From a virus (lineage: Duplodnaviria; Caudoviricetes), in the IMG/VR virus record IMGVR_UViG_3300025326_000032, positions 1-63,352 of that record: 63,352 bases of DNA; one strand, given 5' to 3'. Below the pieces are notes generated by a model. That model had not been told where the DNA came from. It saw nothing but the letters and a program-made list of their open reading frames with translations, and searched no databases. The translations under genes and the position numbers were made by a program. Each line of letters starts with the position of its first letter. Position 1 is the first letter of the stretch. Shown one piece after another: positions 23,631 to 61,758 of this stretch.

Positions 23631-23631
23631 G

Positions 23632-23865
23632 ATGGATTATTCTAACATGACACTGGAGCAGCTTGAAAAGAAGCAACAGGGCTTAGGTGACAAACAGGGT
23701 GACATAAGAACCGAGAAGGCTGCAATTCAGGATGCTATTGATGCTAGAGTTGCTGAATCTGAGGCACAAGCTATTATTGAGCGATCTTCAGAGAAAGTCT
23801 TACAGGAGCTACGTCGGCAGCTTAGCCTTATGCCGTCTGATATTGAGAACACTGATATTCCTTAA
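23632..23865 (+). CDS. Small coiled-coil protein
   Basis: Operon packing. Confidence 0.7.
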   Translation: MDYSNMTLEQLEKKQQGLGDKQGDIRTEKAAIQDAIDARVAESEAQAIIERSSEKVLQELRRQLSLMPSDIENTDIP

Positions 23866-24619: not shown

Positions 24620-27184
24620 ATGACTAAAGAATGGGTCTTTCATTGTGGTTGGGAGCCTGGGAAGCTGCTTTTGGGTAATGTACTTTCTGAACAGCCATAT
24701 ACCTTTATAAATCAAGATTGTTGGAATCTAGGTGCGGGCTCACCAGCTATTCAAGATGCTGATGCAGGTGGGAATGTTCGCAGTGGCCGTTATGCTTGCG
24801 AGTGGCCTATTGCTGGGTTCGGTAAAGTAGCGTTTCAAAACCCTAATGCGGTGTTACCCAGAACTAAGAATTTTCTGTGGTACGTCCACGGCATCGATAT
24901 GCGGGGATCAAGTGGTGGTGGTACGCCCCAGGGCGGTGATCGTTATATTCTTGCTCGCTACTGTGATAGGAATAGTGGCTCTTCTCTGCCAGGTACGTAT
25001 TACTTTGGGTTAGAGATGGTCATTCAGGTTGTAGGGCCACCTAGACAAGTTAACTTTCGTATTGTCTATTTTAACAAGTCAACTGGAGCTTATGTAAATC
25101 CTACAGGCAGTACATCACCGAATTTTGTAGTGCCGACAGGTTGGTTATGGTTAGCTTTCCAGATTGACGTCACAAGTCAACAACATCGGTTATTTGTTAA
25201 TGACGTTGGGGTAGGCTCAGGGCCTACAGCTTTTCCTGGCAGCATGGTTACAGAAGGCTATATCCTGCCAGATAATAGTTTCCAGGCAGGTAAAGGTGGG
25301 GATATCGGCCCTAGGATACACTATGACGATTGGGGTTCTTGTCAGGGAGATGATGCTATAAACGATCGGCCTACTGCTTCGACTAAGATGATTCTTTATC
25401 AGCCTAACTGTGATGTTGATGGATTTAGTGATTGGACTGGTGCAGGTGAAACTACACATGGGAAAAAATATGGCAACTGGGATGATGTGAATGATGATAA
25501 CCCCGTTGACCCAGATTATAATGATCCTACGGCAGATGGGCAGAAGCAAGCAAGTAAGTTTGCTGATGAAGCTAGTGGGTTAGTCGAGGGAGCGCGCTTT
25601 CACTGGGATGATATCTATTCTGGCGTGACACCTGAAAATAAGCTAAGTGCTCGCTCAGATGCCGCAAGTTGGATAGAGCTTGCTAATCCGAGCAATGGGA
25701 TCTGGAGGGCAGTGGGCCGAGAATGGCATGGACGTCAGATGAAAGTAAATCCAGAGGGCAACGGTTGGACAACAGCCCGATTTAATAGTTTAGAGGGAAT
25801 GCTAGAGCAGATCCCAACAGGTGGTATAAATGTAGGAGAATTCTATGTTGTTGCTGTTGGTCAGAATCTTATTCGTCCAGCTAAGACTGTAACACCAGTA
25901 CCTGCTTGTCCTGTAGGAGCTTTAATAATATCACCCTCTGGCATTGTGTCAGTTGAAACTTTCGGTACTTGTACTCTGTTGCCAGGCGCTGTAAGTATCT
26001 TACCTACAGGAATGGCTAGTGTGGAAGCTTTCGGTACTCCTCTATTAAATTATATCTTATCATTGTTAGGTATTACATCATCTGAATCTTTTGGAACAGC
26101 AATTATCCAGCCTGGCAATGTAAATATTATTCCAGCTGGGATTATTAGCAATGAAGTATTTGGTACTCACATTTTGCTACCAGGTACTGTAAGTCTCCTG
26201 CCTATAAGTATTATTAGCGAAGAGCTATTTGGAACCGCAGTTTTAGCCTTATATCTCAATCCGCCAAGTATCACTGCAGAAGAAGCATTCGGGACAGCTG
26301 TACTAACATCTATAGTCTATATCAGTCCTACGGCTATAAGCTCTGCAGAAGCTTTTGGTAATGCTACTATCATATTATATCTACTGCCAGCAGGGATTTC
26401 ACCTGAGGAGCTTTTTGGCACACACCTGCTCAATCTTACTCTTCTGATATTGAGTATAACCTCAGAAGAAGCCTTTGGCTTATCAACACTTCACTTGATT
26501 CTATTCCCGACTGGGGTGGTAAGCTCTGAAGCATTTGGTACAGCAATTATTGTTCTTGGTCTATTTACTATCTTCCCAGATGCAATAGCTTCCCAAGAAA
26601 TCTTTGGAGCAATACAGCTTGTTCCAGGCTCTGTTATTATCTCTAATGCTGGTAATATTGCAAGTCAGGAAACTGTTAGCAATCCCCAGTTAAATCTATT
26701 TCTTACGCCAACTGGTATACTCACAAATGAAGCTTTTGGTGTAGTAGTAGTTCTAGTTACTTTACCTATCATATCACCTGCAGGCATTTCAACTGCTGAG
26801 GCATTTGGAGTTATAGTTATCGTAGGTGGTGTGTTAACTGCTCTGCCTTTAGATATAACTGTAGTTTTATATCCTGGTATCTTGACGGTTGGTCTCGAAA
26901 GGGCTATTATAGATATAACTACGCATTTAGGTGTTGGTGATATAATTAAGCATTTCGGTTCTGTGGATATAGCTAAATACTCAGGTGTTGCAGAGATAAC
27001 TAAGCATAAGCCTATTAGTATTATGGATATAACTAAATATTCAGGTATTATGGATGCCATAAGACAGTCTGGAAATACAGACATTGTTATGCACATAAGC
27101 ACTATAGACATAACTAAGCATTGGAACGCTTTAGATATAACCAAACTCTCAGATGTTAGTGATATAGTGATAGAGATTAATTAA
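24620..27184 (+). CDS. Large fibre-like structural protein: LamG-like N-terminal domain plus two repeat tracts
   Basis: W..LAFQID....RLFVND, IHYDD; 14 P.GI.S.E.FG repeats; about 10 DITK-type 9-mers. Confidence 0.7.
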   Translation: MTKEWVFHCGWEPGKLLLGNVLSEQPYTFINQDCWNLGAGSPAIQDADAGGNVRSGRYACEWPIAGFGKVAFQNPNAVLPRTKNFLWYVHGIDMRGSSGGGTPQGGDRYILARYCDRNSGSSLPGTYYFGLEMVIQVVGPPRQVNFRIVYFNKSTGAYVNPTGSTSPNFVVPTGWLWLAFQIDVTSQQHRLFVNDVGVGSGPTAFPGSMVTEGYILPDNSFQAGKGGDIGPRIHYDDWGSCQGDDAINDRPTASTKMILYQPNCDVDGFSDWTGAGETTHGKKYGNWDDVNDDNPVDPDYNDPTADGQKQASKFADEASGLVEGARFHWDDIYSGVTPENKLSARSDAASWIELANPSNGIWRAVGREWHGRQMKVNPEGNGWTTARFNSLEGMLEQIPTGGINVGEFYVVAVGQNLIRPAKTVTPVPACPVGALIISPSGIVSVETFGTCTLLPGAVSILPTGMASVEAFGTPLLNYILSLLGITSSESFGTAIIQPGNVNIIPAGIISNEVFGTHILLPGTVSLLPISIISEELFGTAVLALYLNPPSITAEEAFGTAVLTSIVYISPTAISSAEAFGNATIILYLLPAGISPEELFGTHLLNLTLLILSITSEEAFGLSTLHLILFPTGVVSSEAFGTAIIVLGLFTIFPDAIASQEIFGAIQLVPGSVIISNAGNIASQETVSNPQLNLFLTPTGILTNEAFGVVVVLVTLPIISPAGISTAEAFGVIVIVGGVLTALPLDITVVLYPGILTVGLERAIIDITTHLGVGDIIKHFGSVDIAKYSGVAEITKHKPISIMDITKYSGIMDAIRQSGNTDIVMHISTIDITKHWNALDITKLSDVSDIVIEIN

Positions 27185-49881: not shown

Positions 49882-50055
49882 GTGGCTAAACCTAAATCAG
49901 ACACCGTACAAGAACAAGAATTAAAGACTTTGACGAAACAGGTAATAGATTTACAAGATAGAACAGCTAAGTGGTATGGTGTGTTTTGTGCAGAGACTAA
50001 TGGATTTCTTATTGAGATAAACAGATTAATTAGACAAGTTAATAAGAAGGTTTAA
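49882..50055 (+). CDS. Hypothetical protein (57 aa, not in ORF track)
   Basis: GTG start, open coiled-coil-like frame. Confidence 0.5.
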   Translation: MAKPKSDTVQEQELKTLTKQVIDLQDRTAKWYGVFCAETNGFLIEINRLIRQVNKKV

Positions 50056-50188
50056 TTCTTCTATGCAGGACAGAAGAAAGGAATAGGCTAGATACTTCGT
50101 GGTGGATACTAAGATGAGTAAGGTCTGTTTGGATATGTTGCCGCACCCCCGATAACATATATATATCTGTCCTGCATAGAGTGATTAA
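50052..50188 (+). ncRNA. Candidate structured RNA closed by a long terminal stem
   Basis: Perfect 15-bp IR 50060-50074/50166-50180, extendable to about 23 bp; internal hairpin with C-rich loop. Confidence 0.55.
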
Positions 50189-50191
50189 GCT

Positions 50192-50362
50192 ATGAAAATA
50201 GACTGGCATGATGATAGTCTTTTTCTACCTATAGATATTTGGCAATTGTTATTAGATTGGCTTAGGAAAGGAACAGTAGAATTTCCTATTCGCTGTGCTG
50301 AGTGTGGAAGTAAGACAAAAGGTAACAGAATTATAGGCTACAGGATGGGATGCAATCACTAA
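50192..50362 (+). CDS. Hypothetical protein (56 aa)
   Basis: TAATG-coupled to methyltransferase; CAEC. Confidence 0.5.
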   Translation: MKIDWHDDSLFLPIDIWQLLLDWLRKGTVEFPIRCAECGSKTKGNRIIGYRMGCNH

Positions 50363-51468
50363 TGGCTGATTGGATTAATCCAGATGGTAAAGTTAAACTC
50401 TTGCATGGTGACTGTATGATTAGAATGCAAGAGATACCATCTAATTCTGTAGATGCTATAGTTACCGATCCTCCTTATGGCCTTTGTTTTATGAACAGAG
50501 AATGGGATGATATCAGTAAGATTAAACTGTTTCATCACAAATGGGCAATTGAAGCTCTTAGAGTCTTAAAACCTGGAGGACATTTATTATCTTGCAGTGG
50601 TACTAGGACATATCATCGAATGGTCTGTGCCATAGAGGATGTAGGGTTTGAAATACGTGATGCTATTCTCTGGGTTTATGGTAGCGGCTTCCCAAAATCA
50701 CAAAATATAGCAAAGGCTATAGACAAGAAACTCGGAGTTAAGTCAGAAGTTATAGGTACACAAACTCTACCTGACCATCGTGGCGACAACTATAAACAGG
50801 GCCATAGAGATTATGAATATATAGAGCATGAAGTTACTAGAGCTACAAGTAAGCAGGCTAAAGAGTGGGAGGGTTGGGGAACAGCTTTAAAGCCAGCAGT
50901 AGAACCAGTGTGTCTTGCACGTAAACCGATAGCTGAAAAGACTATAGCTGCTAATGTTATGGTTTATGGAACAGGTGGTTTGAATATAGATGCTAGTCGT
51001 ATCTATAGCTCAGAGGAAGATGCTTATGGACGTTATCCCAGTAATCTATTATTAGATGAAGAGGCTGCGCAAATATTAGACGAAGGTTCTGAGGTTACTA
51101 AATCCTCAAGAGCTAGTCTGACCAGCAAGCCTGGAAAGATATATGGTGGTGGAGATGGCCTGCCTAGTTATACTGGTTTATATGGCTTTAATGATTCAGG
51201 TGGGCCTAGTAGGTTTTTCTTTGTAGCTAAGGCTAGCTCTAGTGAGCGTAAGGGCTCAGAACATCCTACTATAAAACCAGTTACTCTTATGAAATATCTT
51301 GTAAGGCTTATAACTCCTCCTGATGGAACTGTTCTTGATCCTTTTGCTGGCTCTGGTACTACACTAGAGGCTGCTTATCAATTAGGATTCAATGCTATTG
51401 GAATAGAATTAGATATTGAGAATCTAGAGACGATGATTAAGCGTATGCAGCAGGGAGTACTATTATGA
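50362..51468 (+). CDS. Second N6/N4 DNA methyltransferase (beta class)
   Basis: VTDPPY, GSGFPKS, LKPA.EP, HPT.KP, VLDPFAGSGTT; start may be 50350. Confidence 0.92.
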   Translation: MADWINPDGKVKLLHGDCMIRMQEIPSNSVDAIVTDPPYGLCFMNREWDDISKIKLFHHKWAIEALRVLKPGGHLLSCSGTRTYHRMVCAIEDVGFEIRDAILWVYGSGFPKSQNIAKAIDKKLGVKSEVIGTQTLPDHRGDNYKQGHRDYEYIEHEVTRATSKQAKEWEGWGTALKPAVEPVCLARKPIAEKTIAANVMVYGTGGLNIDASRIYSSEEDAYGRYPSNLLLDEEAAQILDEGSEVTKSSRASLTSKPGKIYGGGDGLPSYTGLYGFNDSGGPSRFFFVAKASSSERKGSEHPTIKPVTLMKYLVRLITPPDGTVLDPFAGSGTTLEAAYQLGFNAIGIELDIENLETMIKRMQQGVLL

Positions 51469-51575
51469 CAATTAGCAGAAATCACCCTCATAAACGTTGC
51501 TTCAGATGTCATATTAGAAAGCGTATTTGTAAAGGCTACAACACTTGTTACATGTGTAGGAAAAAGAATGCCTAA
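51465..51575 (+). CDS. 36-aa Cys-rich basic peptide
   Basis: ATGA-coupled; CFRC..C...CYMC. Confidence 0.5.
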   Translation: MTISRNHPHKRCFRCHIRKRICKGYNTCYMCRKKNA

Positions 51576-51711
51576 ATTACCTAGAAATCTAAAAAAGACT
51601 AATAGTACTGAAGTAGTAAAGGCTGCAGACTATCCTCACACATGCCATTTTTCAGGATATCCTAAAGAAAAAACTAGATGTAAATATTGCGGCAAAAGGA
51701 AGGATGAATGA
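51568..51711 (+). CDS. 47-aa Cys-containing peptide
   Basis: Overlap-coupled; CKYCG. Confidence 0.5.
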   Translation: MPKLPRNLKKTNSTEVVKAADYPHTCHFSGYPKEKTRCKYCGKRKDE

Positions 51712-51818
51712 GTTGTACTTTATGTAAGGCAGGGTTTAAATTACCACATGGTCATATATATAGCCTAGAAGAATTTCAAGATATCCTGAAGCGTATTGTA
51801 CAAGAAAATAAGAAGTAA
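51708..51818 (+). CDS. 36-aa peptide
   Basis: ATGA-coupled; SD AAGGAAGG; CTLC..H.H. Confidence 0.5.
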   Translation: MSCTLCKAGFKLPHGHIYSLEEFQDILKRIVQENKK

Positions 51819-51819
51819 A

Positions 51820-51993
51820 ACTTGAGTGTCTTAGAGTGCAGAGAGGCTGCACTTGGGAGTGACAGGAAGTAACCTGTTGCTGCAAGAGCACAGAGAGAAC
51901 AACAAAATAGTCTTCATGGGCGCGAAGTATATAACAGTAACAGCTCCAACTCCAATTAAGGGTGATCCTCTCTGTGCTCTAAGATATTCGAGT
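51820..51993 (+). ncRNA. Candidate structured RNA with 27-bp closing stem
   Basis: 51820-51846 pairs fully with 51967-51993 using 5 G-U pairs on the + strand. Confidence 0.7.
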
Positions 51994-52004
51994 AACTGAC
52001 ATAG

Positions 52005-52033
52005 TTGACAAATATAGGATATTAGTTTAAAAT
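52005..52033 (+). promoter_or_regulatory. Sigma70-type promoter upstream of endolysin
   Basis: TTGACA-17 nt-TAAAAT. Confidence 0.75.
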
Positions 52034-52085
52034 AATGTTCAATGTATGTTACACATCCAGAATAGCTTAAGTGATAGGTAGACTT

Positions 52086-53060
52086 ATGAAGGGTCTTGAT
52101 CTCAGCTTCGCTTGTCCTCCTCTTGACTGGTGGCAACGTCGTCGGTCTGATGGATTTGAGGTCGTGTTCCAGTGCCTGTGGACGGGTGGCTTCGCGGGCA
52201 ACGACGGCATCAAGGCTGCGGCTGAGACGAACCTACGCAATGCCAGGATGACGGGGTTCAGAACGGTGGGCGGGTACGCCAACGCCAGTCCACCGTCTTG
52301 GTGGCCGCTGGATGTCCAAATGCGAGAGATCAGGGCTAACGCCGGTGGCGAGTGGACGATCCTCAAACGAGTCGCCGTCGATCTAGAAATCCCAGGCCTC
52401 ACGCTCGCACGGGCCGAGGAACTGGCAGATGCTCTGAAGCGTGAAGGCAAGAACGTTGAGATAGTAGACATTGGCTACACTGCCCGCTGGTTCTGGGTAG
52501 GTCACATGGGAAACAGCCTTAACCCACGTTGGCTAAGGTTCAAGTTGTGGAACGCTAACTATGACTGGAACCCCGACATCGATTTCGGCGCGGCTCCCTA
52601 CGGGCCGTGGAAAATGACTGACCTTGTGGGCGAGCAGTATCAGGGCACCACGCAACTGGATGGCTATGCCGTTGACCTCAACACCTTCATAGACAGCGCC
52701 TTTGCGCCGTCAGTACCAACACCAGTTCCTACACCAGAGGAGGTTCTCATGGGCAAGATAGCAGATGATTTCGCAGCGCTGGGACGCACCGTCGAGGCTG
52801 AGGTTGAAGCGGCCAAGGCATTGCCAGCACCAATTCCAGGGCCAGTGGGGCCTACAGGCCCAGCAGGCCCAGCGGGCGGCACTGTGCCCGCGCCTTCCGG
52901 AGCGCGCTACGACACGCTGCTCGCAGCGGACGGCCACTTCACCGGCTTCTGTGCGCGCAACGGGATTACAGTAGAGCAGGGCAAGGCGCTGAATCCAAAT
53001 GGCCCGCCATCCGGTAATTGGAACATCGTCCACGCTGGCGAGGTCTACAGGGTAGCCTGA
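52086..53060 (+). CDS. Endolysin: GH25-like muramidase, Pro/Gly linker, LysM-like C-terminus
   Basis: GLDLS, AVDLE, YTA.WFW, LW.ANY, QY......VDLN; C-terminal GIT...KALNP......IVHAGEVYRV. Confidence 0.85.
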   Translation: MKGLDLSFACPPLDWWQRRRSDGFEVVFQCLWTGGFAGNDGIKAAAETNLRNARMTGFRTVGGYANASPPSWWPLDVQMREIRANAGGEWTILKRVAVDLEIPGLTLARAEELADALKREGKNVEIVDIGYTARWFWVGHMGNSLNPRWLRFKLWNANYDWNPDIDFGAAPYGPWKMTDLVGEQYQGTTQLDGYAVDLNTFIDSAFAPSVPTPVPTPEEVLMGKIADDFAALGRTVEAEVEAAKALPAPIPGPVGPTGPAGPAGGTVPAPSGARYDTLLAADGHFTGFCARNGITVEQGKALNPNGPPSGNWNIVHAGEVYRVA

Positions 53061-53171
53061 CATGGAAGCGCAGAGCTGCGCTTGATCCCGTCAGAGGCTG
53101 ACATGAACGGGGGGCATACCAATTCCAGCGCTATGGCCCATGCGGGAAGGGTCACATAAAGCCGGTAGGAG

Positions 53172-53354
53172 ATGACTGTCCCCGATGCGCTTATTGGCTT
53201 CGCCGCGATAGTCATCATGTTCTTGGGAAGCTACTACGTCTTATTCAGCGCCGAAGCGGAGATAAAAAGAAGAAAGGAAAAACTAGAAAGTGACAAAGAG
53301 AGGAGAAGAACAAAAAGAAAATCATTTCTTAAAAATAGACGTATCATTAAATAA
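53172..53354 (+). CDS. Single-TM protein with basic tail
   Basis: SD AGGAG; N-terminal TM. Confidence 0.65.
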   Translation: MTVPDALIGFAAIVIMFLGSYYVLFSAEAEIKRRKEKLESDKERRRTKRKSFLKNRRIIK

Positions 53355-53382
53355 TATAATTAGTTTTATAAGGAAAGGTACA

Positions 53383-53577
53383 ATGACTGAATTATTTAAC
53401 CAGTTAGGCGGACGAAAATTTACACTTGGCATAGGGAACTTTGTTGCTTTGATGCTTACAACAACAGGAACAATAGATGCGGGAACTGAAGTCCAAGTAG
53501 CCAATGCTATCGGTATGGCTATCTCTGTCATTATGATTGGTCTTGTTGATATTGTTAAAGCTACGAAGAGTAAGTAA
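53383..53577 (+). CDS. Two-TM holin candidate
   Basis: SD GAAAGG; GRKF followed by two hydrophobic helices; near endolysin. Confidence 0.6.
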   Translation: MTELFNQLGGRKFTLGIGNFVALMLTTTGTIDAGTEVQVANAIGMAISVIMIGLVDIVKATKSK

Positions 53578-53783
53578 TGTCAAAACAGTATCTGGTTAAT
53601 TCCGATACTAAAGAAATACATGACTTAAACGCACAAGATTCTCGTTGTAATATTCCTACAGCTCGTGAAGATGATAGCAATCTTAAACGTATCTGCGTTA
53701 AGGAATTTATGCTTCTTATACGAGAAGGCTTCGATACCTGTGGCTGGTGTTTCGCGGATGAGTCTGATTTAGAGTCTGTATAA
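53577..53783 (+). CDS. Small metal-binding-like protein
   Basis: YLVN..TKEIH......C....GFD.C.WC. Confidence 0.65.
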   Translation: MSKQYLVNSDTKEIHDLNAQDSRCNIPTAREDDSNLKRICVKEFMLLIREGFDTCGWCFADESDLESV

Positions 53784-53794
53784 CGCTATCTATT

Positions 53795-53938
53795 ATGATA
53801 TTGCGTAAATGGCAGCGTCGAGACAAAAGACGCAAACAGGATAGTCGTATTCGACTGCGTAATCTGCGTAATCATAATGTGCCAATTACTGGTACTAGCA
53901 TTATTCGTCGTAGCAAGCGAGATAACGGCAATAGATAA
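53795..53938 (+). CDS. 47-aa Arg-rich peptide (not in ORF track)
   Basis: MILRKWQRRDKRRKQDSRIRLRNLRNHNVPITGTSIIRRSKRDNGNR; no clear SD. Confidence 0.4.
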   Translation: MILRKWQRRDKRRKQDSRIRLRNLRNHNVPITGTSIIRRSKRDNGNR

Positions 53939-54018
53939 AGAAGCTGAACATGCGGCAATAGGAACTTTCGGGAACTCCCAACAGAATCGGGGGGGCGGGC
54001 GTAGCCCGCAACTTACAT

Positions 54019-54378
54019 ATGTTTGAAACAACAAGGGGTTATGGATACATAGAATTTACACGCTGGATTAAAAGAAGTGTTAATTACAGATGTTCAATTT
54101 GTCTTTGGAGAGCTAAAGGTCATGAACTGAAGTTAGATATAGTTCTTCATCATAAAGATTCTAATCCTTATAATAATAAAGCAACAAATCTTATTGTTGT
54201 ATGTTGTGACTGTCATGATGAATTACATGGTAGAGAAATATCTAGGAGAAGACGAGCAGTTGTAGTCAAACGCCGTCGGACTCAGAGACATGATAAGCAA
54301 GGCTGGCCACTGGTTGATTCGTACTTACATAATACAGCAATAAGATATCGGCTTAAGGAAGCGCGTAAATGTGAGTGA
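54019..54378 (+). CDS. HNH endonuclease
   Basis: CSIC...HHKD.NPYNN...NLIVVC.DCH..LH. Confidence 0.85.
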   Translation: MFETTRGYGYIEFTRWIKRSVNYRCSICLWRAKGHELKLDIVLHHKDSNPYNNKATNLIVVCCDCHDELHGREISRRRRAVVVKRRRTQRHDKQGWPLVDSYLHNTAIRYRLKEARKCE

Positions 54379-54434
54379 GGCGGCGAGAGTGGCAAGAAAG
54401 TCTACTCTAATTCTCTTTTTAGGATCAAATAATT

Positions 54435-54761
54435 ATGAGAGTTTATATTGCAGGCCCATATACTCAGGGTGACGTAGCTGAAAACATCAGACAAGTTATA
54501 TATGCTGCAGAGCAGGTGCGAGAAGCTGGTCATGTTCCTTTTGTTCCTCATTTATATCATTTATGGCATCTGATATCTCCTCAGCTACCAGAATATTGGA
54601 GAAAACTAGATATTGATTGGCTAGTTATATGTCATGCTTTTATCAAACTAGATGGTGATTCCAAGGGAGCTGATTTAGAGGAAGATCTGTGTAGTGAGAT
54701 TAATATTCCTATTTATTATACAGTGAAAGAATTTTTAAATACTGTATTGCTTGACAAGTAA
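54435..54761 (+). CDS. DUF4406/nucleoside deoxyribosyltransferase-like protein
   Basis: VYIAGPYT.G, G..PF.PH, D..WL..C.A...L.G.SKGA..E. Confidence 0.75.
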   Translation: MRVYIAGPYTQGDVAENIRQVIYAAEQVREAGHVPFVPHLYHLWHLISPQLPEYWRKLDIDWLVICHAFIKLDGDSKGADLEEDLCSEINIPIYYTVKEFLNTVLLDK

Positions 54762-54779
54762 TTAGAATTGTGTCATAAT
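54751..54779 (+). promoter_or_regulatory. Sigma70-type promoter
   Basis: TTGACA-17 nt-CATAAT with extended TG; ATG at 54786 may be leaderless. Confidence 0.65.
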
Positions 54780-54785
54780 TATAGT

Positions 54786-55010
54786 ATGAATAGTCTATTA
54801 TCTTGTCAACATCCTAAGTTAGCTTGCAGATGGCAAGTTAAGACTGAGCAGCGTGATGCTGCTTTAGTTTCATGTAAGTCATGTGGCTTCAGTATAGAAA
54901 TTATTGCCAGTAATTGCGATGAGGCTTTAACTGAAGCTAGTATTATTACTGAGTTTAATGCTGCAGCTGATCGTTACAGACGTGGCAAAGTGATAATTGC
55001 CTTAAATTAA
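54786..55010 (+). CDS. Zn-ribbon hypothetical protein
   Basis: CQH...CKSCG. Confidence 0.6.
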   Translation: MNSLLSCQHPKLACRWQVKTEQRDAALVSCKSCGFSIEIIASNCDEALTEASIITEFNAAADRYRRGKVIIALN

Positions 55011-55258
55011 TAAACGAAGTGCAGCTTTCTTAATTGCCTTAGTTCCAATCTTCACTAATGAGATTATGTCAACTTTTAATTGACACCGTAGCATTTTGGG
55101 GATTTAATGCTAAAGGCTATTGACAAGGAATGCATTTTTGCGATAAAATGCTATGGGGTTTAAATGGATTTGTATCTATACAAGTCCGAAAGCACTTTCA
55201 TTACAACCTATGGTTAGTTATAGGTAGCCGATCCCCCATAGTCAAACAAGTTTTGGAA

Positions 55259-55771
55259 ATGCAGAGATTACCGAAGAGGATAGAAAATTTACGGCAGAAG
55301 TCTATGAGGTCGCCTACACTCCGACAACGTTATCTTAAGTATACAGAAGGTTATTTAAGAGGACAGACTGATGCGGAGAGTATATATCGTCCAGATATAT
55401 CTTTTAGGAAAATTGCGGAGCTGATACAGTCACAAGGGAAAGTAACTCTGAGACGTAAGAGTTATCCTATGGTGATTATTAGGCTGTCGCTTAAAGATAC
55501 TGATATATACTACATAAGGCCTATATATGAAAAGATACCGTGGACTAGGTTCCTGTCATGGGCTTCTAACCGTCCAGAATTATATTTTGTTTGGGAGGGA
55601 TACAATGCCCAAATCTTATTGTCTAAATGTAAACAATATTTGCCTGATGATTTAATGTCTGTGATCAAAAAAGCCTTAAGGTGGATTCCGATGAAAGGAG
55701 TAGAGATACCTGAAAATGAAATGAGAGAATTGCTGAATGATAATCCTGCTTATCCAGTATCTAATTTATAA
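55259..55771 (+). CDS. Degenerate LAGLIDADG-like DNA-binding protein
   Basis: GYLRGQTDAES resembles a LAGLIDADG helix; start uncertain. Confidence 0.45.
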   Translation: MQRLPKRIENLRQKSMRSPTLRQRYLKYTEGYLRGQTDAESIYRPDISFRKIAELIQSQGKVTLRRKSYPMVIIRLSLKDTDIYYIRPIYEKIPWTRFLSWASNRPELYFVWEGYNAQILLSKCKQYLPDDLMSVIKKALRWIPMKGVEIPENEMRELLNDNPAYPVSNL

Positions 55772-55783
55772 GGGAGAACTATA

Positions 55784-56560
55784 ATGGCTGATAATGATGC
55801 ATGGGAGTTAGAAGAGCTAACCCCAATAAATAATGCTGAGGTTACAATTGCTGATTCTTATTTTGAAGAAGGTAAATATGGCACACAGTTAACATTAGTA
55901 TGTAATATAGATATACCTATTGATCCTGTAGATATTTCCTTCTCTACTTTTAGTATCTGGTATGGAGTGGGTAAAGGTTGGCAGATTCTAGAGAATGGTG
56001 GGCGTATAGTTAAGCCAGATACTGATCCTGCTAAGCCAGTTAAGATTCACGCTTCGAGTCGCTTAGGTAAGCTTATTGCGCGGGTTATTAAGGACTTGAA
56101 GTTTGATATGCAACCAAGAGGACTTCCGACTGAAGCCAAAGTTTGGAAAGGTCTTAAAATGCATATGCTTCGTGAGCTAGTGCATTATGAAGGTATAGTA
56201 GATGAGGTAAGTGGCGAAGCAAAGACTATTGATTCGAGTATCCTGCTTCCTACAGCTGTTTCAATTGGGCAATTAACTCCACCAACTGTTGCTGGATCAG
56301 TTCCTCAAGCAAGTTATCAACCTACTACTACAGCTAATGAGCCAGTTTCAGCTAATGGTTTAAGTGATACTGATAAGCATATATTAAGTCTTGCTGTTGG
56401 TAAGGCATCATTAGCAGAGGCTAAAGCAGCTATTGTTCGTGATCCTGTTATTGCAAATGATAATGCTGCATCTTCTAGGGTTTTAGAGCATGGCTTACTA
56501 GAACAGTGGATGGCTTCAGGTATTTTACAGTCTGTTGATGGTAGGCTTATAGCAGTGTAG
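55784..56560 (+). CDS. Hypothetical protein, possible ssDNA-binding protein
   Basis: SD AAGGGAG; recombination neighbourhood; function inferred from context only. Confidence 0.6.
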   Translation: MADNDAWELEELTPINNAEVTIADSYFEEGKYGTQLTLVCNIDIPIDPVDISFSTFSIWYGVGKGWQILENGGRIVKPDTDPAKPVKIHASSRLGKLIARVIKDLKFDMQPRGLPTEAKVWKGLKMHMLRELVHYEGIVDEVSGEAKTIDSSILLPTAVSIGQLTPPTVAGSVPQASYQPTTTANEPVSANGLSDTDKHILSLAVGKASLAEAKAAIVRDPVIANDNAASSRVLEHGLLEQWMASGILQSVDGRLIAV

Positions 56561-56629
56561 AGATAACTACTTATTTTATATGGATTGTATGAGTAATTGC
56601 AAATATAGTATTAGAAAGGAGGTGACAAA

Positions 56630-56770
56630 ATGGATTATGAGCGAGAGCGACCAAATGGTCAAGAAGAGGTAACTACTCCAGAGCCAGAACCAGAATCTGA
56701 TGTTGAGGAATCATCTGCTGAGGAATCAGCAGCTCCTGATGAATCTGAGTCTTCGGCTAAATCAGAGTAG
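56630..56770 (+). CDS. 46-aa highly acidic peptide (not in ORF track)
   Basis: Very strong SD AGAAAGGAGGTGA; MDYERERPNGQEEVTTPEPEPESDVEESSAEESAAPDESESSAKSE. Confidence 0.7.
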   Translation: MDYERERPNGQEEVTTPEPEPESDVEESSAEESAAPDESESSAKSE

Positions 56771-56885
56771 TCAGTATTTAGGACAGCGACACACACTTGT
56801 GGGGAATCCTCGATAGAGTCTTGGGACTGAGGACATAGGAAACAGATGGGGCTTAGGTTTCCTAATAGATAACAAGGAGATATCA

Positions 56886-57242
56886 ATGCCGATGTATATC
56901 AGGGGCGTGGATTTAGTTAGACGAATGAAAGAGCGTTCTCTCTTATTAAAAGAGAATGCTCGAACTATTCGGTTGGAGGCCAAGCAGACAGTAGATGGTA
57001 TAAATGCTGCAATACCAGCATCTATGAGAGCTGGTATGGCTCAAGCTGATGCTCAAGCTATGTCTATGGTTGAAGGAGCAGCCTTAAGAAATGAGACTAT
57101 GGCTGATGATTTAGAATGGCTTGCTGCTGTTATAGTAGAAGATAAGACTCATATTATTAATGCTTCTGAGTTAGAATGTCTTGGAGTAATTAAGACACCT
57201 ATTGGGAGAATAATGGGTATGGATATTTCCAGTGAAGATTAA
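56886..57242 (+). CDS. Hypothetical protein
   Basis: SD AAGGAG. Confidence 0.7.
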   Translation: MPMYIRGVDLVRRMKERSLLLKENARTIRLEAKQTVDGINAAIPASMRAGMAQADAQAMSMVEGAALRNETMADDLEWLAAVIVEDKTHIINASELECLGVIKTPIGRIMGMDISSED

Positions 57243-57519
57243 TACTGAAGAAGTGGTTATAGAGTTTGACTGGCCTATTAATGTAGCTAGTCTTTGTGTA
57301 GATGATGATATAGAAGTATGGATGGCTTGGTGTGCTAAAAGCTCTGGTGATTCTAAATGTATATGTTATCCTAATACACCAGTAGCATTTGGGGATACGC
57401 GGGAAGAAGTCTTAGAATTCTGGCATAACCAACATTTTCCAATAATTGCTTATAAGATGCGTGATGAACAAGGTGAGACAGTTGGAGTTGACCTTAGTGG
57501 ATTTGGATTACCACTGTAA
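57232..57519 (+). CDS. Hypothetical protein
   Basis: Coupled ORF; HicB-like AFGDTREE motif. Confidence 0.6.
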   Translation: MKINTEEVVIEFDWPINVASLCVDDDIEVWMAWCAKSSGDSKCICYPNTPVAFGDTREEVLEFWHNQHFPIIAYKMRDEQGETVGVDLSGFGLPL

Positions 57520-57773
57520 TGAGTATTTGGAGAGACGGTAAGTGGTTTTGTGATGTAGGTATATGGCGATATATTCCTGCTGGTACATATAATCCCGCAG
57601 TTAGAATTGAAAATGATCAGATTGTACATAGTTTAGAACCGCGTGAAGTTGATCAACTTGTAGATGCACTTCAAGAAGCTCATTGGATAAAACCTAAAAT
57701 AGATGAACGAGTAAGAGAAGAAGATATTAAAATAATCCATCGCTTACTTGATATCATTGAGAATAGAGAATAA
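57519..57773 (+). CDS. Hypothetical protein
   Basis: TAATG-coupled. Confidence 0.65.
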   Translation: MSIWRDGKWFCDVGIWRYIPAGTYNPAVRIENDQIVHSLEPREVDQLVDALQEAHWIKPKIDERVREEDIKIIHRLLDIIENRE

Positions 57774-58055
57774 TGTTCTTTTAGAAGCCTTGGAGGAGGC
57801 CCTAGATTTATCACAGTACCTCATGCAGATGTGGTTGGAGAGAGAAAATGAAGTCATCAAAGGAAGTTCTTATGGGTAAGATAGCAGATCAGTGTCATGT
57901 GCGAGACCGATAGATACTGGATTGGCGTCTATCAACGCATTCTGCGAGAGCATCTGGCTTGCCACCGGCGCGGCCCCCTCGAAAGAATCCGCTGATGGTT
58001 GATGGTGAGAAGAGAACGCCGTGCGGTGGCCGAGCGCTTCAAAGACCTGAAGTAG
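57772..58055 (+). pseudogene. Patch of gene remnants
   Basis: Headless frame LEALEEALDLSQYLMQ (57772-57879); GC-rich frame 57897-58055 broken by TGA at 57993. Confidence 0.45.
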
Positions 58056-58104
58056 CGGCCCTATAATCAACACATGGCTAGTCAGTAGTATTTGGAGGAA
58101 TGTA

Positions 58105-58341
58105 ATGGCACTTAGCTCAGATGAAGCCTATGGTCTAATTGGTCAGATAGAAGAAGTTCGACGTGAAATGGCTCTTTCTCAGGCTGCTCTAATTGCTTTT
58201 GCCCGTGGTAAACTAGGTCAGCCTGGGCAACCAAACACAATTGATGTTTTGCGTATCTCTGCAGCTGCAGCGCTTGCATCTCAGGCTGCTCAGCGCTTAG
58301 TTCAAGAAGCTAATGATATAGGTGGAGCCTTTGGAGGCTAA
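58105..58341 (+). CDS. Hypothetical protein
   Basis: SD GGAGG. Confidence 0.7.
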   Translation: MALSSDEAYGLIGQIEEVRREMALSQAALIAFARGKLGQPGQPNTIDVLRISAAAALASQAAQRLVQEANDIGGAFGG

Positions 58342-58388
58342 AGAAAACTAGGATGAGGATGATAAGTTAAGAGAGGATACGCTTCAGA

Positions 58389-59327
58389 GTGGTATTTGAT
58401 AATTCTACAGTAACATCTTTTATTCCTCCTGAATGGCCTGGATATTGGACATCATCACAGCTTGGCTGCTGGCGATGTATGTATCTTGTGTCTCAAGGTA
58501 TAGAAGGTGATTTCGTAGTTGATTCACCAGTTTTTGAAGAAGGTCGTTTACATGAGGATGATATTTTAGCTAAACTAGCCGTCAAAGGCATCCGTGTATA
58601 TGATAGGCAGGTAGAACTGTCACATCCTCTATTGCCGTTTAAGGGCCATCCTGATGCATGGGCTGATATGGATACAGAAAATCAATGCATTACCCGTATA
58701 GTTGATGTAAAGTCAATGGATAGGTCTTATTGGTATAAGGCAGTTACTGACTTTATACTTAACTTCAGACATCTGTATTTACAAGTTCAATCCTATTCTC
58801 TAATGTCTAGACAAGAACCTATTTATATACCTGTTAAGAATAGAGCAACAGGCCAAATACATGAGTTATACTTTGAACCTGATCCTGTGGCGTTTGCTGA
58901 AATAGAAGCAGGCGTAGCTCTTCTTGGAGCTGCTGTAGAAGATAAGTTATTTGATTATTTAACATTAACTTGTCCTCCTGAAGATTCTATTAAAGCTAAA
59001 TGGTGTCCTTATAGAAAGCGTGGTTTGTGTGAACATCAGACTAATATACCTGATGTTACTGAATCTGAGGTAGTACAAGCTATTTCCAGTTATGATGAAG
59101 GACGTGTTCTTACTAGGCAAGGTGATAAGCTAAAGGCTGAAGCTCGTAAGATTATTGTTACTTATCTTAAAGGTCATGGTTTAAAGAAGATTAAGGTTAT
59201 GGGTAAAACTCCTAGTCTTATAGATATGTCTAGACGTAACTGTGATTTTGAGAGATTACTTGAATTAGATAAGGCCATATATGATGAAGTAGTCTCTGAG
59301 ACTAATTATGAGAAGTTTGATGTTTAA
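58389..59327 (+). CDS. Cas4-like PD-(D/E)xK exonuclease
   Basis: S.LGC.R, G..HE, GHPD, DVKS, Q.Q.Y, WCPY....C. Confidence 0.82.
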   Translation: MVFDNSTVTSFIPPEWPGYWTSSQLGCWRCMYLVSQGIEGDFVVDSPVFEEGRLHEDDILAKLAVKGIRVYDRQVELSHPLLPFKGHPDAWADMDTENQCITRIVDVKSMDRSYWYKAVTDFILNFRHLYLQVQSYSLMSRQEPIYIPVKNRATGQIHELYFEPDPVAFAEIEAGVALLGAAVEDKLFDYLTLTCPPEDSIKAKWCPYRKRGLCEHQTNIPDVTESEVVQAISSYDEGRVLTRQGDKLKAEARKIIVTYLKGHGLKKIKVMGKTPSLIDMSRRNCDFERLLELDKAIYDEVVSETNYEKFDV

Positions 59328-59346
59328 TGCTTAATCTCTGACTTAC

Positions 59347-59375
59347 TTGACATTCATTCAGTCATGTGTTATAGT
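59347..59375 (+). promoter_or_regulatory. Sigma70-type promoter
   Basis: TTGACA-17 nt-TATAGT with extended TG. Confidence 0.75.
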
Positions 59376-59404
59376 TAGTGTAAAGGTAATATAAGGAGCG
59401 TAAT

Positions 59405-60235
59405 TTGGCACCACGAGAGCGTGTTCTAATAGGTGGAGAGTCAGGCTCAGGGAAAACATATGCTTGGCTATCTATTGCACGTTATAATCCTCAGTCTCAA
59501 TTCTATGTGGCAGAAGCTGATGATGGTGTTACTAAAGTTCTATCTTTAGAATATCCTGATGTATTAGCCAATGGTAATGTACATGGAGTTAGAAACGAGA
59601 ATGGTATCTGGCAACCTCCTGACTTAATTCAAGAATGGGTTGACTTTAGGCACTTCGTAGAAACCCTTAAAGAATTCAAAGAATCTGGTCAGCTCCAAGA
59701 ATCTGACTGGATTATTGTTGAGGGTATAGACTTAATTAAGAATACTATTACTTATAACTATATAGATAAAGTATATAAGATAGATCGTAAGACTAAACGA
59801 GCTATTACAGATCCTTGGGATGCTATTATAGCTCAACGTTCTAGAGGTTCACCAATACTTGATCCTTCTGATCGTGATGCTATTAACTCTGAGTATGAGG
59901 CACAGTTAACTTGGCCTGCATATATATCTCAGTGTAATCTAGTAGGTACAGCTGCCATATCTCGTATCAATTTTGATTCTGATTATGCTGATAAAGGTGT
60001 TAAAGAGTATTATGCTTCTCTAGGTACACCACTAAGGATAGATGGACACAAACGTAGCCCTAGAATGTTTGATACTCTAATATATCTTTTTGCAGGCAAT
60101 ACATACCAGATGCAGATTCTTAAGGATAGAGGCATAGGTCGTCAGATATCCCTAGTGGATACTGGTGAGTTTTATCTCTCTTTGGAAAAGTTTAGAACTA
60201 CTACTATGTCAGCTAGAAGTCTAGGAGTATCTTAA
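59405..60235 (+). CDS. P-loop NTPase (Sak4/AAA_24-like recombinase)
   Basis: GESGSGKT, WIIVEG, G.K..P..FD, KDRG; next to Cas4-like nuclease. Confidence 0.75.
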   Translation: MAPRERVLIGGESGSGKTYAWLSIARYNPQSQFYVAEADDGVTKVLSLEYPDVLANGNVHGVRNENGIWQPPDLIQEWVDFRHFVETLKEFKESGQLQESDWIIVEGIDLIKNTITYNYIDKVYKIDRKTKRAITDPWDAIIAQRSRGSPILDPSDRDAINSEYEAQLTWPAYISQCNLVGTAAISRINFDSDYADKGVKEYYASLGTPLRIDGHKRSPRMFDTLIYLFAGNTYQMQILKDRGIGRQISLVDTGEFYLSLEKFRTTTMSARSLGVS

Positions 60236-60394
60236 GTGACTAAATGTGTATTTTCTAAAGCATGGGCAAAACTTAAAATTGGTTTAGAGGATAAGACTTC
60301 ATGGGGAAAGACCGAACTCAAAAATCTTATGTTTATATGTTTAGAAAATGCAGCACTAGAAGACGACAATGAAAGGCATGGGAATGATGACTAA
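60236..60394 (+). CDS. Hypothetical protein (52 aa, not in ORF track)
   Basis: GTG with SD AGGAG; KTSWGKTELK. Confidence 0.55.
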   Translation: MTKCVFSKAWAKLKIGLEDKTSWGKTELKNLMFICLENAALEDDNERHGNDD

Positions 60395-60395
60395 T

Positions 60396-60677
60396 TAAAA
60401 CTATTATAGAGTCTACTCAGAACGGTAGATCAGGATGCGCTGTCTGAATATTATGTTTTTCCTCGCTTTCTCCTGTATTTAGGCAGCAATATTACGCTCA
60501 CCGTCTCCTGTGCGCCTGAGCAGTCTAGGTCTTTTGCTGGATACTAGGCTTGACTGATGAGATTACTAATTAAATTCTTATTAGTCAGTAATGGAGGGTC
60601 TAGGAATTGTCCTCCCACAGTTTCTAGCAGCGAAATTAGTAATAGCTGAATTCTGGGTAGACTCTACGATAGTTTTA
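60396..60677 (+). ncRNA. Candidate 282-nt multi-hairpin ncRNA with C/U-rich loops
   Basis: 26/27-bp closing stem (2 G-U), four internal hairpins, 10-bp loop pairing. Confidence 0.72.
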
Positions 60678-60702
60678 TTTAAGCTGAGTTTGGAATGTAA
60701 GA

Positions 60703-61071
60703 ATGGGATTAGTAAGAACAAAGATATTAGCATTACCTAGACCATTAGAACAAACACTAACAGATATCGCAAAGGATTTAAATGTCAGTAGACAGTATGT
60801 TCATCAGATAGTAACTACTGAAAGAATATCTCAATATAGGCGTAAACGACCGTTATGTAAAGGTTGTGGAAAGAATGAAGCTAACGGATATAAAAGACGA
60901 TATTGCCCTGACTGTATAAGTCAGGATTTGCATAATAAGAACAAACGGACTGGTAAAGAATTTAAGTGCTATAGGTGTGGTATAATGGTTTATAGAAAGC
61001 CTTCTCACATTAAACGTATGAAACCAAATGGTAAATCTTATTGCTATGACTGTTATATGTTTAATCGCTAG
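60703..61071 (+). CDS. HTH plus Zn-finger DNA-binding protein
   Basis: TLTDIAKDLNVSRQYVHQI; several CxxC. Confidence 0.75.
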   Translation: MGLVRTKILALPRPLEQTLTDIAKDLNVSRQYVHQIVTTERISQYRRKRPLCKGCGKNEANGYKRRYCPDCISQDLHNKNKRTGKEFKCYRCGIMVYRKPSHIKRMKPNGKSYCYDCYMFNR

Positions 61072-61074: not shown

Positions 61075-61758
61075 ATGGATATTCTAATCTCTCCAACTGA
61101 GCCCTACGAAATAAAGTCAGACTTTGGTGAATATGGTATATCTGCTCCTCACTTACCATCAGATTATGGTTGGTATGTAAAGGGTAAACGAAGTCTGGTT
61201 CAACGTAAGCATATTCCAGGTGATATGTTAGCTTCAATACAAGATGGACGATTTCAGCGAGATATGCAGATCCTACTTGAGAATATAGAACAAGGCGGTA
61301 GGAGTTATCTACTGCAAGAAGGTCATTGGTCTTGTGATAAACAGGGTATGATTCTTAATCCTACAAGACCGTCAGGATGGAGTTATGAAAAGATATCAGA
61401 ACTACTATCTACTGTACAAGAAATGGGTATAGAATTACTTATAAGTCCTGATATTAGTATGACTGCATTAGTTATTATCAGTCAAGTTAGATGGGAGCTT
61501 AAAGAAGATCATTCAAGCCTTTCACGCAGACCAGGATTAGTAGCCGAATGGGGTAAGCCTAGTTATGCTTCTTATACTATATGGTCTTACCAAGGTATTC
61601 CAGGTGTAGGTGCAGATATAGCTGAGATACTATTTAAGTCAGCTCCTACATGGGAGAAGCTAGTAGATATGAATATAGCTGAATTTCAGGAGCTAAAGCA
61701 TTTCGGGAAAAAGCGAGCAGAGCGTGTATATAACTTTATACATAAGGGGAAGTTATGA
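61075..61758 (+). CDS. ERCC4/XPF-family nuclease with HhH motifs
   Basis: DY...VQRK...D.LASI.DGRF..., L.EG, IPGVG, FGKKRA. Confidence 0.85.
   Translation: MDILISPTEPYEIKSDFGEYGISAPHLPSDYGWYVKGKRSLVQRKHIPGDMLASIQDGRFQRDMQILLENIEQGGRSYLLQEGHWSCDKQGMILNPTRPSGWSYEKISELLSTVQEMGIELLISPDISMTALVIISQVRWELKEDHSSLSRRPGLVAEWGKPSYASYTIWSYQGIPGVGADIAEILFKSAPTWEKLVDMNIAEFQELKHFGKKRAERVYNFIHKGKL

Follow-up and report, generated by a model that had tools for sequence, protein, structure and literature searches.

Conserved structured RNAs closed by long helices lie between genes of an uncultured soil siphovirus-like phage

What are the three non-coding elements that lie between plus-strand genes of the viral record IMGVR_UViG_3300025326_000032, each shut end to end by a long helix, and are they cut out of the mRNAs that would carry them? 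The question matters because little has been charted of the non-coding RNAs of phages, and RNAs that are both large and intricately folded are uncommon and often associated with unusual biochemistry. The window analysed here (the whole stretch of 63,352 nucleotides) covers almost the entire genome of an uncultured, siphovirus-like soil phage. A first-pass annotation, made from the letters of this stretch, had placed three such elements in it, here called E1, E2 and E3, together with two mRNA cassettes closed in a similar way, and had proposed a genome-wide theme in which RNase III releases structured effector RNAs from polycistronic transcripts.

Syntenic relatives of this phage were present in four other viral records, with proteins that are mostly 35-65% identical. 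These relatives were found through a methyltransferase, a Cas4-like exonuclease and a three-protein alignment; single-protein searches of viral_contigs with the products of 59405-60235, of the RNR gene and of 61075-61758 yielded no relatives. Among cultured phages, the E3 region had no DNA match and the upstream neighbour of E3 no protein match, and the identity of the major capsid protein to any counterpart in a cultured phage does not exceed 37%. Searches of genome_contigs returned neither a relative of the E3 neighbour protein nor the E3 core, and provided no prophage or host clue. The phage is contained in 20 of the 23 sequencing runs listed for the stretch, all of them DNA runs and none RNA.

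An ungapped duplex scan of the window, which permitted G-U pairs and a span of up to 1500 nt, ranked the closing stems of E1, E2 and E3 as the three strongest long-range plus-strand duplexes (scores of 49, 48 and 42, respectively). In 30 dinucleotide shuffles, the best score per shuffle lay between 30 and 39, such that all three stems exceeded 30 of 30 shuffles and the places given to the elements by the first-pass annotation were borne out. An independent repeat search also listed E3, E1 and the pair at 16083 as inverted repeats. When folded as single sequences, E1, E2 and E3 had z-scores of -5.2, -6.9 and -7.3, respectively, and shuffled sequences that folded as well as the native one numbered 0 of 200 for E1, 0 of 200 for E2 and 0 of 100 for E3.

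E1 is a 143-nt structured RNA on the plus strand (50049-50191), delimited by duplex scan, folding, homologues and covariation. Its closing helix (P1) pairs 50049-50074 with 50166-50191 and has 26 bp (21 Watson-Crick pairs, 4 G-U pairs and 1 mismatch), enclosing two hairpins. Homologues of 109-143 nt place E1 in five genomes (the window, L003, G001, G002 and G004), with one copy each in a shared slot after the RNR gene; E1 is tied to this upstream gene, while the downstream genes vary between genomes and a downstream start codon directly abuts the 3' arm only in the window. Compensatory changes on both sides were found for 15 of 27 P1 pairs, and 96.2% of alignment cells were paired as compared to 35-44% in a slid control. 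A covariance model built for E1 found exactly one copy per genome, with scores of 86-105 bits on the plus strand versus 34-49 bits on the minus strand, and matched neither E2 nor E3. The 57-aa ORF at 49882-50055 on the plus strand ends in a TAA stop that falls within the 5' arm, and in all five E1 loci the upstream stop ends between -2 and +6 nt from the start of the arm. E1 carries a C-rich apical loop motif (50144-50150, plus strand), which reads CACCCCC in the window and CCCUCCC in two relatives; the C-rich loop is kept in 5 of 5 copies and is predicted to be unpaired in 4 of them (mean probability 0.67-0.87), the motif in the G004 copy being present but partly paired in the prediction. With regard to possible targets of this loop, the best partner within the genome is 53985-54000 (-25.5 kcal/mol), which is not clearly conserved in the relatives. 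The idea of a conserved G-rich target for the loop upstream of the ORF at 54019 was dropped, as it is suggestive in the window only.

E3, the largest of the three, is a 290-nt multi-helix RNA on the plus strand (60392-60681) that was identified by the same four approaches. Its closing helix spans 31 positions (60392-60422 with 60651-60681; 27 Watson-Crick pairs, 2 G-U pairs and 2 mismatches), and ten helices are predicted overall, with homologues ranging in length from 232 to 290 nt. Four genomes (the window, G001, G002 and G004) carry E3, in one copy each and in the same slot directly upstream of an HTH/zinc-ribbon gene. This downstream gene is shared by 4 of 4 genomes and a homologous upstream gene by 3 of 4, G004 being the one that differs; the start codon of the downstream gene and the 10-34 nt preceding it lie outside the E3 helix. 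E3 sits within a replication/recombination module and adjoins an ERCC4-type nuclease gene. Compensatory changes on both sides affect 33 of its 76 pairs and are found in six further interior helices besides the closing stem; 98.3% of cells were paired, compared to 38-44% in the slid control, which is the fairer control as shuffles overstate significance among related sequences, and 0 of 500 shuffles equalled the native value. A near-invariant core of 25 nt (60501-60525, plus strand), which was defined from the alignments, covers a junction and a small hairpin. A scan of viral_contigs with the exact 18-nt core pattern matched no records other than those of G001 and G002, and a degenerate form of the 25-mer had no match in genome_contigs. 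The alignment also revealed a bulge, UCAGG (60430-60434, plus strand), as a candidate for pseudoknot pairing with the CCUGA loop (60515-60519); the five pairs are present in every one of the 4 sequences, with one two-sided change (U-A to C-G in G004). Four short segments of E3 change jointly in G004, where they permit alternative pairings. Two further readings of E3 were considered and dropped: a hammerhead ribozyme, since the word CUGAUGA occurs in the window copy only and Rfam gives no match to E3, and an intron, since E3 is not spaced uniformly from the ORFs on either side and G004 has a different gene upstream.

E2 is a lineage-specific element of 174 nt (51820-51993, plus strand) that is able to adopt two alternative pairings; it was defined by duplex scan, folding and a single homologue. 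That homologue is found in the close relative L002/L010 (L010 is identical to L002 across E2), and a scan with the E2 core pattern detected only the L002 contig in viral_contigs, and the same contig (L011) together with L010 in metagenome_contigs. The closing helix (51820-51846 with 51967-51993) has 27 bp (22 Watson-Crick pairs, 5 G-U pairs and no mismatch); between the window and L002, 21 of these 27 pairs are the same, 3 have one-sided changes, 2 have two-sided changes and 1 is broken. Conservation is concentrated in the 5' part (51820-51900; 72 of 81 positions identical to L002), which at 89% identity exceeds the 65% of the upstream flank, whereas the middle (51901-51966) is variable (18 of 66). 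In the alternative pairing, an inner 5' arm (51885-51897, plus strand) pairs with 51968-51980 and replaces the upper part of the outer arm. This alternative is the minimum-energy fold of L002, in which 11 of its 13 pairs are unchanged and 2 are now wobble pairs; the two pairings are mutually exclusive, and both are retained in L002. Among strain variants in contigs of four DNA runs (40 of 121 positions listed), a G>A change at 51990 turns a U-G pair of the E2 stem into U-A. In G004, the slot that corresponds to E2 holds an interior unrelated to that of the window.

The two mRNA cassettes fared differently. In the cassette at 16083-16724 (plus strand), an ORF (16128-16691) lies between a paired 5' UTR and 3' UTR; the pairing of 16083-16101 with 16706-16724 comprises 19 bp (18 Watson-Crick pairs and 1 G-U pair), its score of 37 was equalled by 3 of 30 shuffles, and the gene ranks 1st of 93 window genes for pairing between its 5' and 3' flanks, while its G002 homologue ranks only 16th of 106. 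The cassette at 14860-15528 (plus strand; ORF 14874-15506), by contrast, is weak and not comparable, with a flank pairing of only 9 bp (14860-14868 with 15520-15528) and a rank of 3rd of 93 in the window and 20th of 106 for the G002 homologue. What had been described as a genome-wide theme amounts to a pair of conserved families, a further element that is lineage-specific and a single convincing mRNA cassette.

Across the window and its relatives, 12 of 12 closing stems are 26-31 bp long, with 0-2 non-standard pairs each, so that the long stems of the first-pass annotation hold while its range of 22-27 bp does not. Stem length is constant, while the interiors enclosed by the 12 stems range from 51 to 228 nt and are separately folded and partly conserved. 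Deviations in these stems consist of 40 G-U, 6 A-C and 6 other pairs, in agreement with the earlier remark that they are mostly G-U on the plus strand; the excess of G-U over A-C indicates RNA made from that strand. The elements also begin, as had been noted, at or near an upstream stop codon: the stop of the upstream ORF ends 6 (E1), -2 (E2) and 2 nt (E3) from the first base of the arm, and this distance is at most 7 nt in each of the 11 loci where an ORF precedes the arm, including the G002 E3 locus, where proximity is due to a 36-aa ORF and the 70-aa homologue of the window ORF ends 63 nt upstream. No promoter-like site (at least 10 of 12 matches) immediately precedes E1 or E3; the nearest ones are at 47618 and 59347. 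Such sites do occur directly after E2 and after a hairpin at 55019-55135, which suggests that some elements may do no more than flag the 3' end of a transcription unit.

Within this phage clade, E1 and E3 form conserved RNA families that lie outside Rfam. At the gathering score, Rfam 15 matched only 2 tRNAs in the whole window; with E values of up to 10, there was no match in 49900-52100, and 60300-60800 had 6 chance-level matches (snoRNA, miRNA and lncRNA; E of at least 3). In the loci of five relatives, Rfam gave 2 unrelated matches, both away from the elements. The stems themselves are conserved in the relatives through the compensatory changes described above, in families that are small (4-5 sequences each for E1 and E3, and 2 for E2). 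Tests against other classes were likewise negative: there was no match to the PF00078 reverse transcriptase of a retron msr-msd in the record (E up to 1), and, with regard to a Y RNA or YrlA, which would combine an end-to-end stem and a Ro-binding site with a nearby Ro (TROVE) protein gene and a tRNA-like module, there was no TROVE, RtcB or Rfam match and no tRNA-like ARAGORN call outside 10266-10428. Searches for a phage-encoded RNase III, dsRBD protein, RNA ligase, RtcB or TROVE protein found none (E up to 1); the lack of the first four counts against the excision reading that follows.

The reading that we favour, and consider moderately probable, is that these elements are structured non-coding RNA modules between plus-strand genes that are carried in polycistronic mRNAs and cut out by host RNase III at the closing helix. 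All 12 stems provide the continuous helix of about two turns (22 bp) that is typical of RNase III substrates; since the closing helices are of the kind that RNase III cuts, the elements are probably cut from mRNAs as rRNAs are, and excision by this enzyme is the best mechanism and a plausible one. According to this reading, modules would be transcribed as part of polycistronic mRNAs, with each one opening at the stop codon that ends the ORF before it and shut by its predicted near-perfect end-to-end helix. Host RNase III would then cut both strands of this helix, as in rRNA precursors, which would part the flanking cistrons from each other and free the interior as a separate RNA with the leftover half of the helix as its cap. 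Once released, E1 would probably use its C-rich loop to act on ribosome-binding sites that are G-rich, and E3 may, as a guess, form the core of a protein-RNA complex. Of the effector roles suggested previously, an anti-SD-like one is consistent with the C-rich loop of E1 only, while decoys and antitoxin mimics found no support.

Several other explanations account for parts of these data. The long helices may be the whole function, serving as intercistronic processing or stability signals in the style of the T7 early sites, which would divide the mRNA into segments and shield the 3' and 5' ends so created, with interiors that are tolerated spacers rather than trans-acting RNAs. The placement of the elements exactly between cistrons, the strong promoter-like sites that immediately follow two of them, and the constancy of the stems while interior length varies freely all suit this explanation, and the unrelated interiors in the E2 slot fit a function of the stem as well as they fit a released effector. 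We nevertheless regard it as rather doubtful, because the interiors are conserved (the E1 loop in every copy, the near-invariant E3 core with its six additional compensating helices, and the 5' 81 nt of E2) to a degree not expected of spacers; moreover, arms that enclose separately folded sequence of this size set the elements apart from T7-type intercistronic signals.

Less probable still, and in our view unlikely, are cis-acting leaders or operators that do not require RNase III, with E3 as a protein- or ligand-binding leader of the HTH/zinc-ribbon gene and E2 as a two-state switch. Both the fixed association of E3 with the same downstream gene and the joint changes of its four segments in G004 are compatible with such a role, as are the mutually exclusive pairings of E2. 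However, the switching helices of known riboswitches are far shorter than the P1 helices of 27-31 bp found here, the start codon of the gene downstream of E3 and the nucleotides just before it are outside the helix, and E1 follows its upstream rather than its downstream gene. Features at the level of DNA (MITE-like inverted-repeat elements, cruciforms, replication origins or sites for structure-specific nucleases) are very improbable, even though long inverted repeats in intergenic DNA are what such features would present and the surroundings of E3 could accommodate them. The G-U pairs of the stems would be A-C mismatches on the minus strand, the arms of E1, E2 and E3 are mutually unrelated in sequence, E1 is single-copy in each genome, and no target-site duplication was evident by eye in the flanks, all of which agrees with the earlier view that these are not copies of one mobile element; in addition, the elements occupy the same slots in diverged genomes, and compensatory changes extend to interior helices for which a DNA repeat would have no use.

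A bolder version of the favoured reading, excision by RNase III, is possible but tentative. It would have this clade mature several RNAs from its mRNAs in the manner of rRNA, with E3 representing a novel class of RNA that is large (232-290 nt) and pseudoknotted, a ribozyme or an RNP core working with the HTH/zinc-ribbon protein or with recombination genes rather than a simple antisense RNA, and with E1 as a C-rich-loop riboregulator that shuts G-rich ribosome-binding sites. The invariant junction core of E3 would point to such a sophisticated job. Apart from this, the analysis adds two RNA families, backed by covariation, that Rfam lacks, one of them near 300 nt, and a testable maturation logic shared by both, in which an rRNA-like processing helix starts at a stop codon; the elements are compact, and in vitro tests of them do not require the host to be known. 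If RNase III does release these modules, phage operons would be able to encode stable intercistronic RNAs without promoters or terminators of their own, and the annotation of intergenic gaps in phages would change.

Comparison with known systems places these elements among several precedents. The RNase III sites of T7 early mRNA are local hairpins of approximately 50-60 nt with an internal loop, from which no separate RNA is known to be released, whereas DicF is an sRNA that is released from an operon transcript and also needs RNase E. Like these, the elements described here would involve RNase III acting at structures between the cistrons of polycistronic transcripts from a phage or prophage (prophage DicF is cited in PMC8687705 and PMC12197685), yet their helices enclose large folded interiors and occur several times per genome. 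With rRNA precursors they share a long flanking helix that brackets a structured RNA within a longer transcript, and their helices exceed the 22 bp of the idealised Escherichia coli RNase III substrate (PMC3867540); they differ in that a phage mRNA is the transcript, the RNAs held within the brackets are of 109-290 nt and putative function, the 5' arm starts at a stop codon, and the cleavage is predicted. The sRNA CJnc190 of Campylobacter jejuni, which RNase III matures via a long duplex between the two ends of its precursor and which targets a ribosome-binding site that is G-rich, resembles E1 in its end-to-end duplex alongside the conserved C-rich loop; CJnc190 has a chromosomal gene, its own promoters and an antisense partner, while E1 is inside a phage operon and has no sequence relationship to it (PMC8687705). 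The same report cites DicF and the Bacillus subtilis scRNA, such that calling the strategy undescribed was an overstatement; with rRNA, DicF and CJnc190 as precedents, RNase III excision is itself not a new kind of strategy. Structured-RNA candidates mined from IMG/VR are likewise motifs from intergenic regions of comparable viral contigs and are supported by covariation; their lengths of 29-151 nt (mean 67; PMC10690425) exclude full-length E3, while E1 could by size be among them. Finally, base-pairing sRNAs with C-rich loops, in which an accessible loop is complementary to G-rich ribosome-binding sites, offer a possible comparison with E1 in how it may work, rather than as a sequence family.

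The four top-scoring long-range duplexes on the + strand of the window, found by an ungapped scan of both strands that allowed G-U pairs and spans of up to 1500 nt, are the closing stems of three non-coding elements and a pair of arms flanking an ORF. They comprise E2 (51820-51846 with 51967-51993; score 49; length 27, with 22 Watson-Crick pairs, 5 G-U and no mismatch), E3 (60392-60422 with 60651-60681; score 48; length 31, with 27, 2 and 2), E1 (50049-50074 with 50166-50191; score 42; length 26, with 21, 4 and 1) and an mRNA cassette (16083-16101 with 16706-16724; score 37; length 19, with 18, 1 and 0). The best duplex per shuffle scored 30-39 in 30 dinucleotide shuffles; the E1, E2 and E3 stems exceed chance, and judged genome-wide the cassette is a borderline hit. 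E3 alone scored highly on the - strand, and a separate repeat search independently lists E3, E1 and the 16083 cassette. RNA folding energies of E1, E2 and E3 are -54, -71.8 and -106.9 kcal/mol (z = -5.2, -6.9 and -7.3). The first-pass annotation had reported three such elements, starting at or near an upstream stop codon and closed by stems of 22-27 bp; the elements are present, the distance from the end of the stop codon to the start of the arm is 6, -2 and 2 nt (E1, E2 and E3, respectively), and the stems are indeed long, with a measured length of 26-31 bp.

The record (63,352 bases; 40.5% GC; estimated completeness 96%) carries nearly all of its genes on the + strand and encodes a large terminase, portal, major head protein and tail module as well as a class II-like ribonucleotide reductase, two DNA methyltransferases and a recombination module. 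Identity between its major capsid protein and those of cultured phages does not exceed 37%, and the phage therefore belongs to an uncultured clade. Most single-protein searches for relatives gave no match; a methyltransferase search yielded L002 (95% identical) and L003 (67%), a Cas4-like exonuclease search G001 (34.8 kb) and G002 (67.15 kb; complete, with terminal repeats), and a three-protein alignment search G004 (31 kb). All relatives are collinear with the window, with 76-79% identity for the capsid protein and 35-65% for most other proteins. When the duplex scan used on the window was run on these relatives, their top + strand long-range duplexes coincided with the E1 and E3 slots. The reductase ORF of G004 (13215-16259, locus L028) has 1014 aa versus 690 aa in the window, with 75% identity over 436 aligned residues, and its extra length suggests a putative insertion, e.g., an intein. 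In one contig from a soil DNA run, 57521 is followed directly by 58087, leaving out 565 bases, and this segment seems to be absent from some strains.

An E1 homologue lies 3' of the reductase gene, usually with a small ORF between, in all five genomes compared (the window, L003, G001, G002 and G004); a sixth contig, L010, ends within the E1 3' arm. Over the 27 aligned pairs of the closing helix, standard pairs occupy 96.2% of cells versus 35-44% when the partner was shifted by 1-3 columns, and changes on both sides are seen in 15 pairs versus 1-4 in the shifted controls. The E1 covariance model scores 86-105 bits on the + strand versus 34-49 on the - strand. The interior varies in length (51-91 nt among five copies), and a C-rich motif (CACCCCC, CCCUCCC or CACCCCACC) is kept in 5/5 copies and predicted to be unpaired in four; this loop may pair with G-rich sites. 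Of the sites in the window, 53985-54000 is its strongest partner (-25.5 kcal/mol), for which conservation in the relatives could not be shown. The surrounding 233-nt gap before ORF 54019 (53786-54018) has no + strand ORF, contains a seven-G run followed by a GC hairpin, and is the window's best complement to the loop; G-rich, GC-rich stretches precede genes homologous to ORF 54019 in G001 (26960-27075) and G002 (22530-22600), and L003 has a stretch like these at 3990-4100.

E3 homologues are found directly 5' of the same HTH/zinc-ribbon gene in 4/4 genomes, with a homologous upstream gene in three. In the consensus structure of ten helices and 76 pairs, 98.3% of cells are paired (38-44% when slid) and 33 pairs changed on both sides (2-5 when slid), values matched by none of 500 shuffles. 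The sequence is invariant over long stretches, including a 25-nt core (60501-60525) with no occurrence elsewhere in the viral collection and none in the prokaryote genome collection. In each of the four sequences the bulge at 60430-60434 is able to pair with the hairpin loop at 60515-60519, making a candidate pseudoknot; both sides changed at one pair, in G004, a change that also makes pairing with the top of the closing helix possible as an alternative.

E2, by comparison, has a homologue only in the close relative L002/L010, with identities of 72/81 in the 5' part, 18/66 in the middle and 26/40 in the upstream flank; 21 of its 27 closing pairs are the same, three have changed on one side, two on both sides, and one is broken. 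A second, inner 5' arm (51885-51897) can displace the upper part of the outer arm, and this pairing, in which two substitutions are both wobble-compatible, is the minimum-energy fold in L002. In one strain variant, A replaces G at 51990, and a U-G pair of the stem becomes U-A. The same slot after the methyltransferase in G004 holds a 107-nt element with a 27-bp closing helix that is unrelated to E2. The gene after E2 (52071-53060) has 59.5% GC versus 40.5% for the genome, no Pfam or PHROG match, a promoter-like site before it at 52005 (11/12 matches) and partial matches in soil-run contigs of other, GC-rich organisms; it may be a recent acquisition.

Inverted repeats of this length could also be mobile DNA repeats or cruciforms. 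Among 332 positions in 12 closing stems, 280 are Watson-Crick, 40 G-U, 6 A-C and 6 other, a G-U count to be read with the caveat that arm boundaries came from a scan rewarding G-U on the scanned strand; each of these 40 would become an A-C mismatch if the - strand or a DNA cruciform were what folds, and the asymmetry (40 versus 6) argues for + strand RNA and against mobile repeats or cruciforms. Compensatory changes in interior helices, conserved slots and a single copy per genome point the same way, and the claim that the elements are not copies of one mobile element holds, as the E1 model matches exactly once per genome and at neither E2 nor E3. The unrelated phage contig L005 has a near-perfect inverted repeat of 41 bp (1584-1742; spacer, 77 nt), which looks DNA-level rather than like an RNA stem because it scores similarly on both strands.

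Known RNA classes offer a further set of explanations for these + strand RNAs. Searches of the phage found no gene for reverse transcriptase, Ro/TROVE, RtcB, RNA ligase, a dsRBD protein or RNase III, which leaves retron, Y-RNA and self-contained processing or ligation models without partners; a retron was rejected for want of the reverse transcriptase, and a Y-RNA for want of Ro/TROVE and RtcB. E1-E3 have no Rfam 15 match in the window or its relatives. A published IMG/VR mining study gives structured-RNA candidates of 29-151 nt (PMC10690425); on that range full-length E3 cannot be among them, and E1 might be.

The mRNA cassettes had been described as similarly closed, which is borne out at 16083/16724 (ORF 16128-16691) by the 19-bp, borderline-scoring stem and fails at 14860/15528 (ORF 14874-15506), where only 9 bp form (14860-14868 with 15520-15528). 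Their flank pairing energies rank 1/93 and 3/93 among window genes, and those of their G002 homologues 16/106 and 20/106. Both ORFs are richer in GC (50% for 14874-15506 and 56% for 16128-16691), lack a family match and have homologues in G002; inspection by eye shows a separate promoter-like TTGACA site for each, and a terminator-like hairpin lies 3' of 14874-15506. Short CGGG/CCCG flank pairings recur in 4/4 copies (window and G002). Between them, 15507-16127 (about 600 nt without an ORF of at least 50 aa) is a possible origin or regulatory region; both strands of 15507-15903 fold well (z = -4.8 and -3.9), and TCAGAT occurs five times within 15588-15693. The gap at 18352-18574, between the sole - strand gene block (17169-18351) and the terminase genes, has an unusually good - strand fold (z = -5.8). 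A long imperfect hairpin at 55011-55135 (z = -3.7), directly followed by a promoter-like site at 55120 (11/12 matches), may mark the end of an operon or constitute a fourth conserved structured element; G002 (23592-23675) and G004 (21162-21229) have long local hairpins in the corresponding position, flanked by homologues of 54768-55010 and 55130-55771.

As + strand RNA structures E1-E3 are conserved, and in the relatives the closing helix keeps a length of 26-31 bp while its sequence covaries. Each element starts at the stop codon upstream, none has a strong promoter-like site to itself, and the helices are longer than the 22-bp idealised RNase III substrate (PMC3867540). RNase III would cut both strands of the near-perfect closing helix, freeing an interior that retains half of the helix and parting the flanking cistrons; we regard such excision, although unproven, as the leading hypothesis. 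Conservation of the interiors argues that E1 and E3 RNAs, once released, would do something. The earlier observation is confirmed and now covers a small phage clade, and its interpretation, that effector RNAs are cut from polycistronic transcripts, is partly supported; the solid result is that E1 and E3 are RNA families absent from Rfam and that E2 is a lineage-specific element. The strategy had been called undescribed, yet the early sites of phage T7 are one precedent for RNase III processing. Others are rRNA precursors, prophage DicF and the B. subtilis scRNA (PMC8687705), and the strategy is therefore a variant of a known one rather than a new kind.
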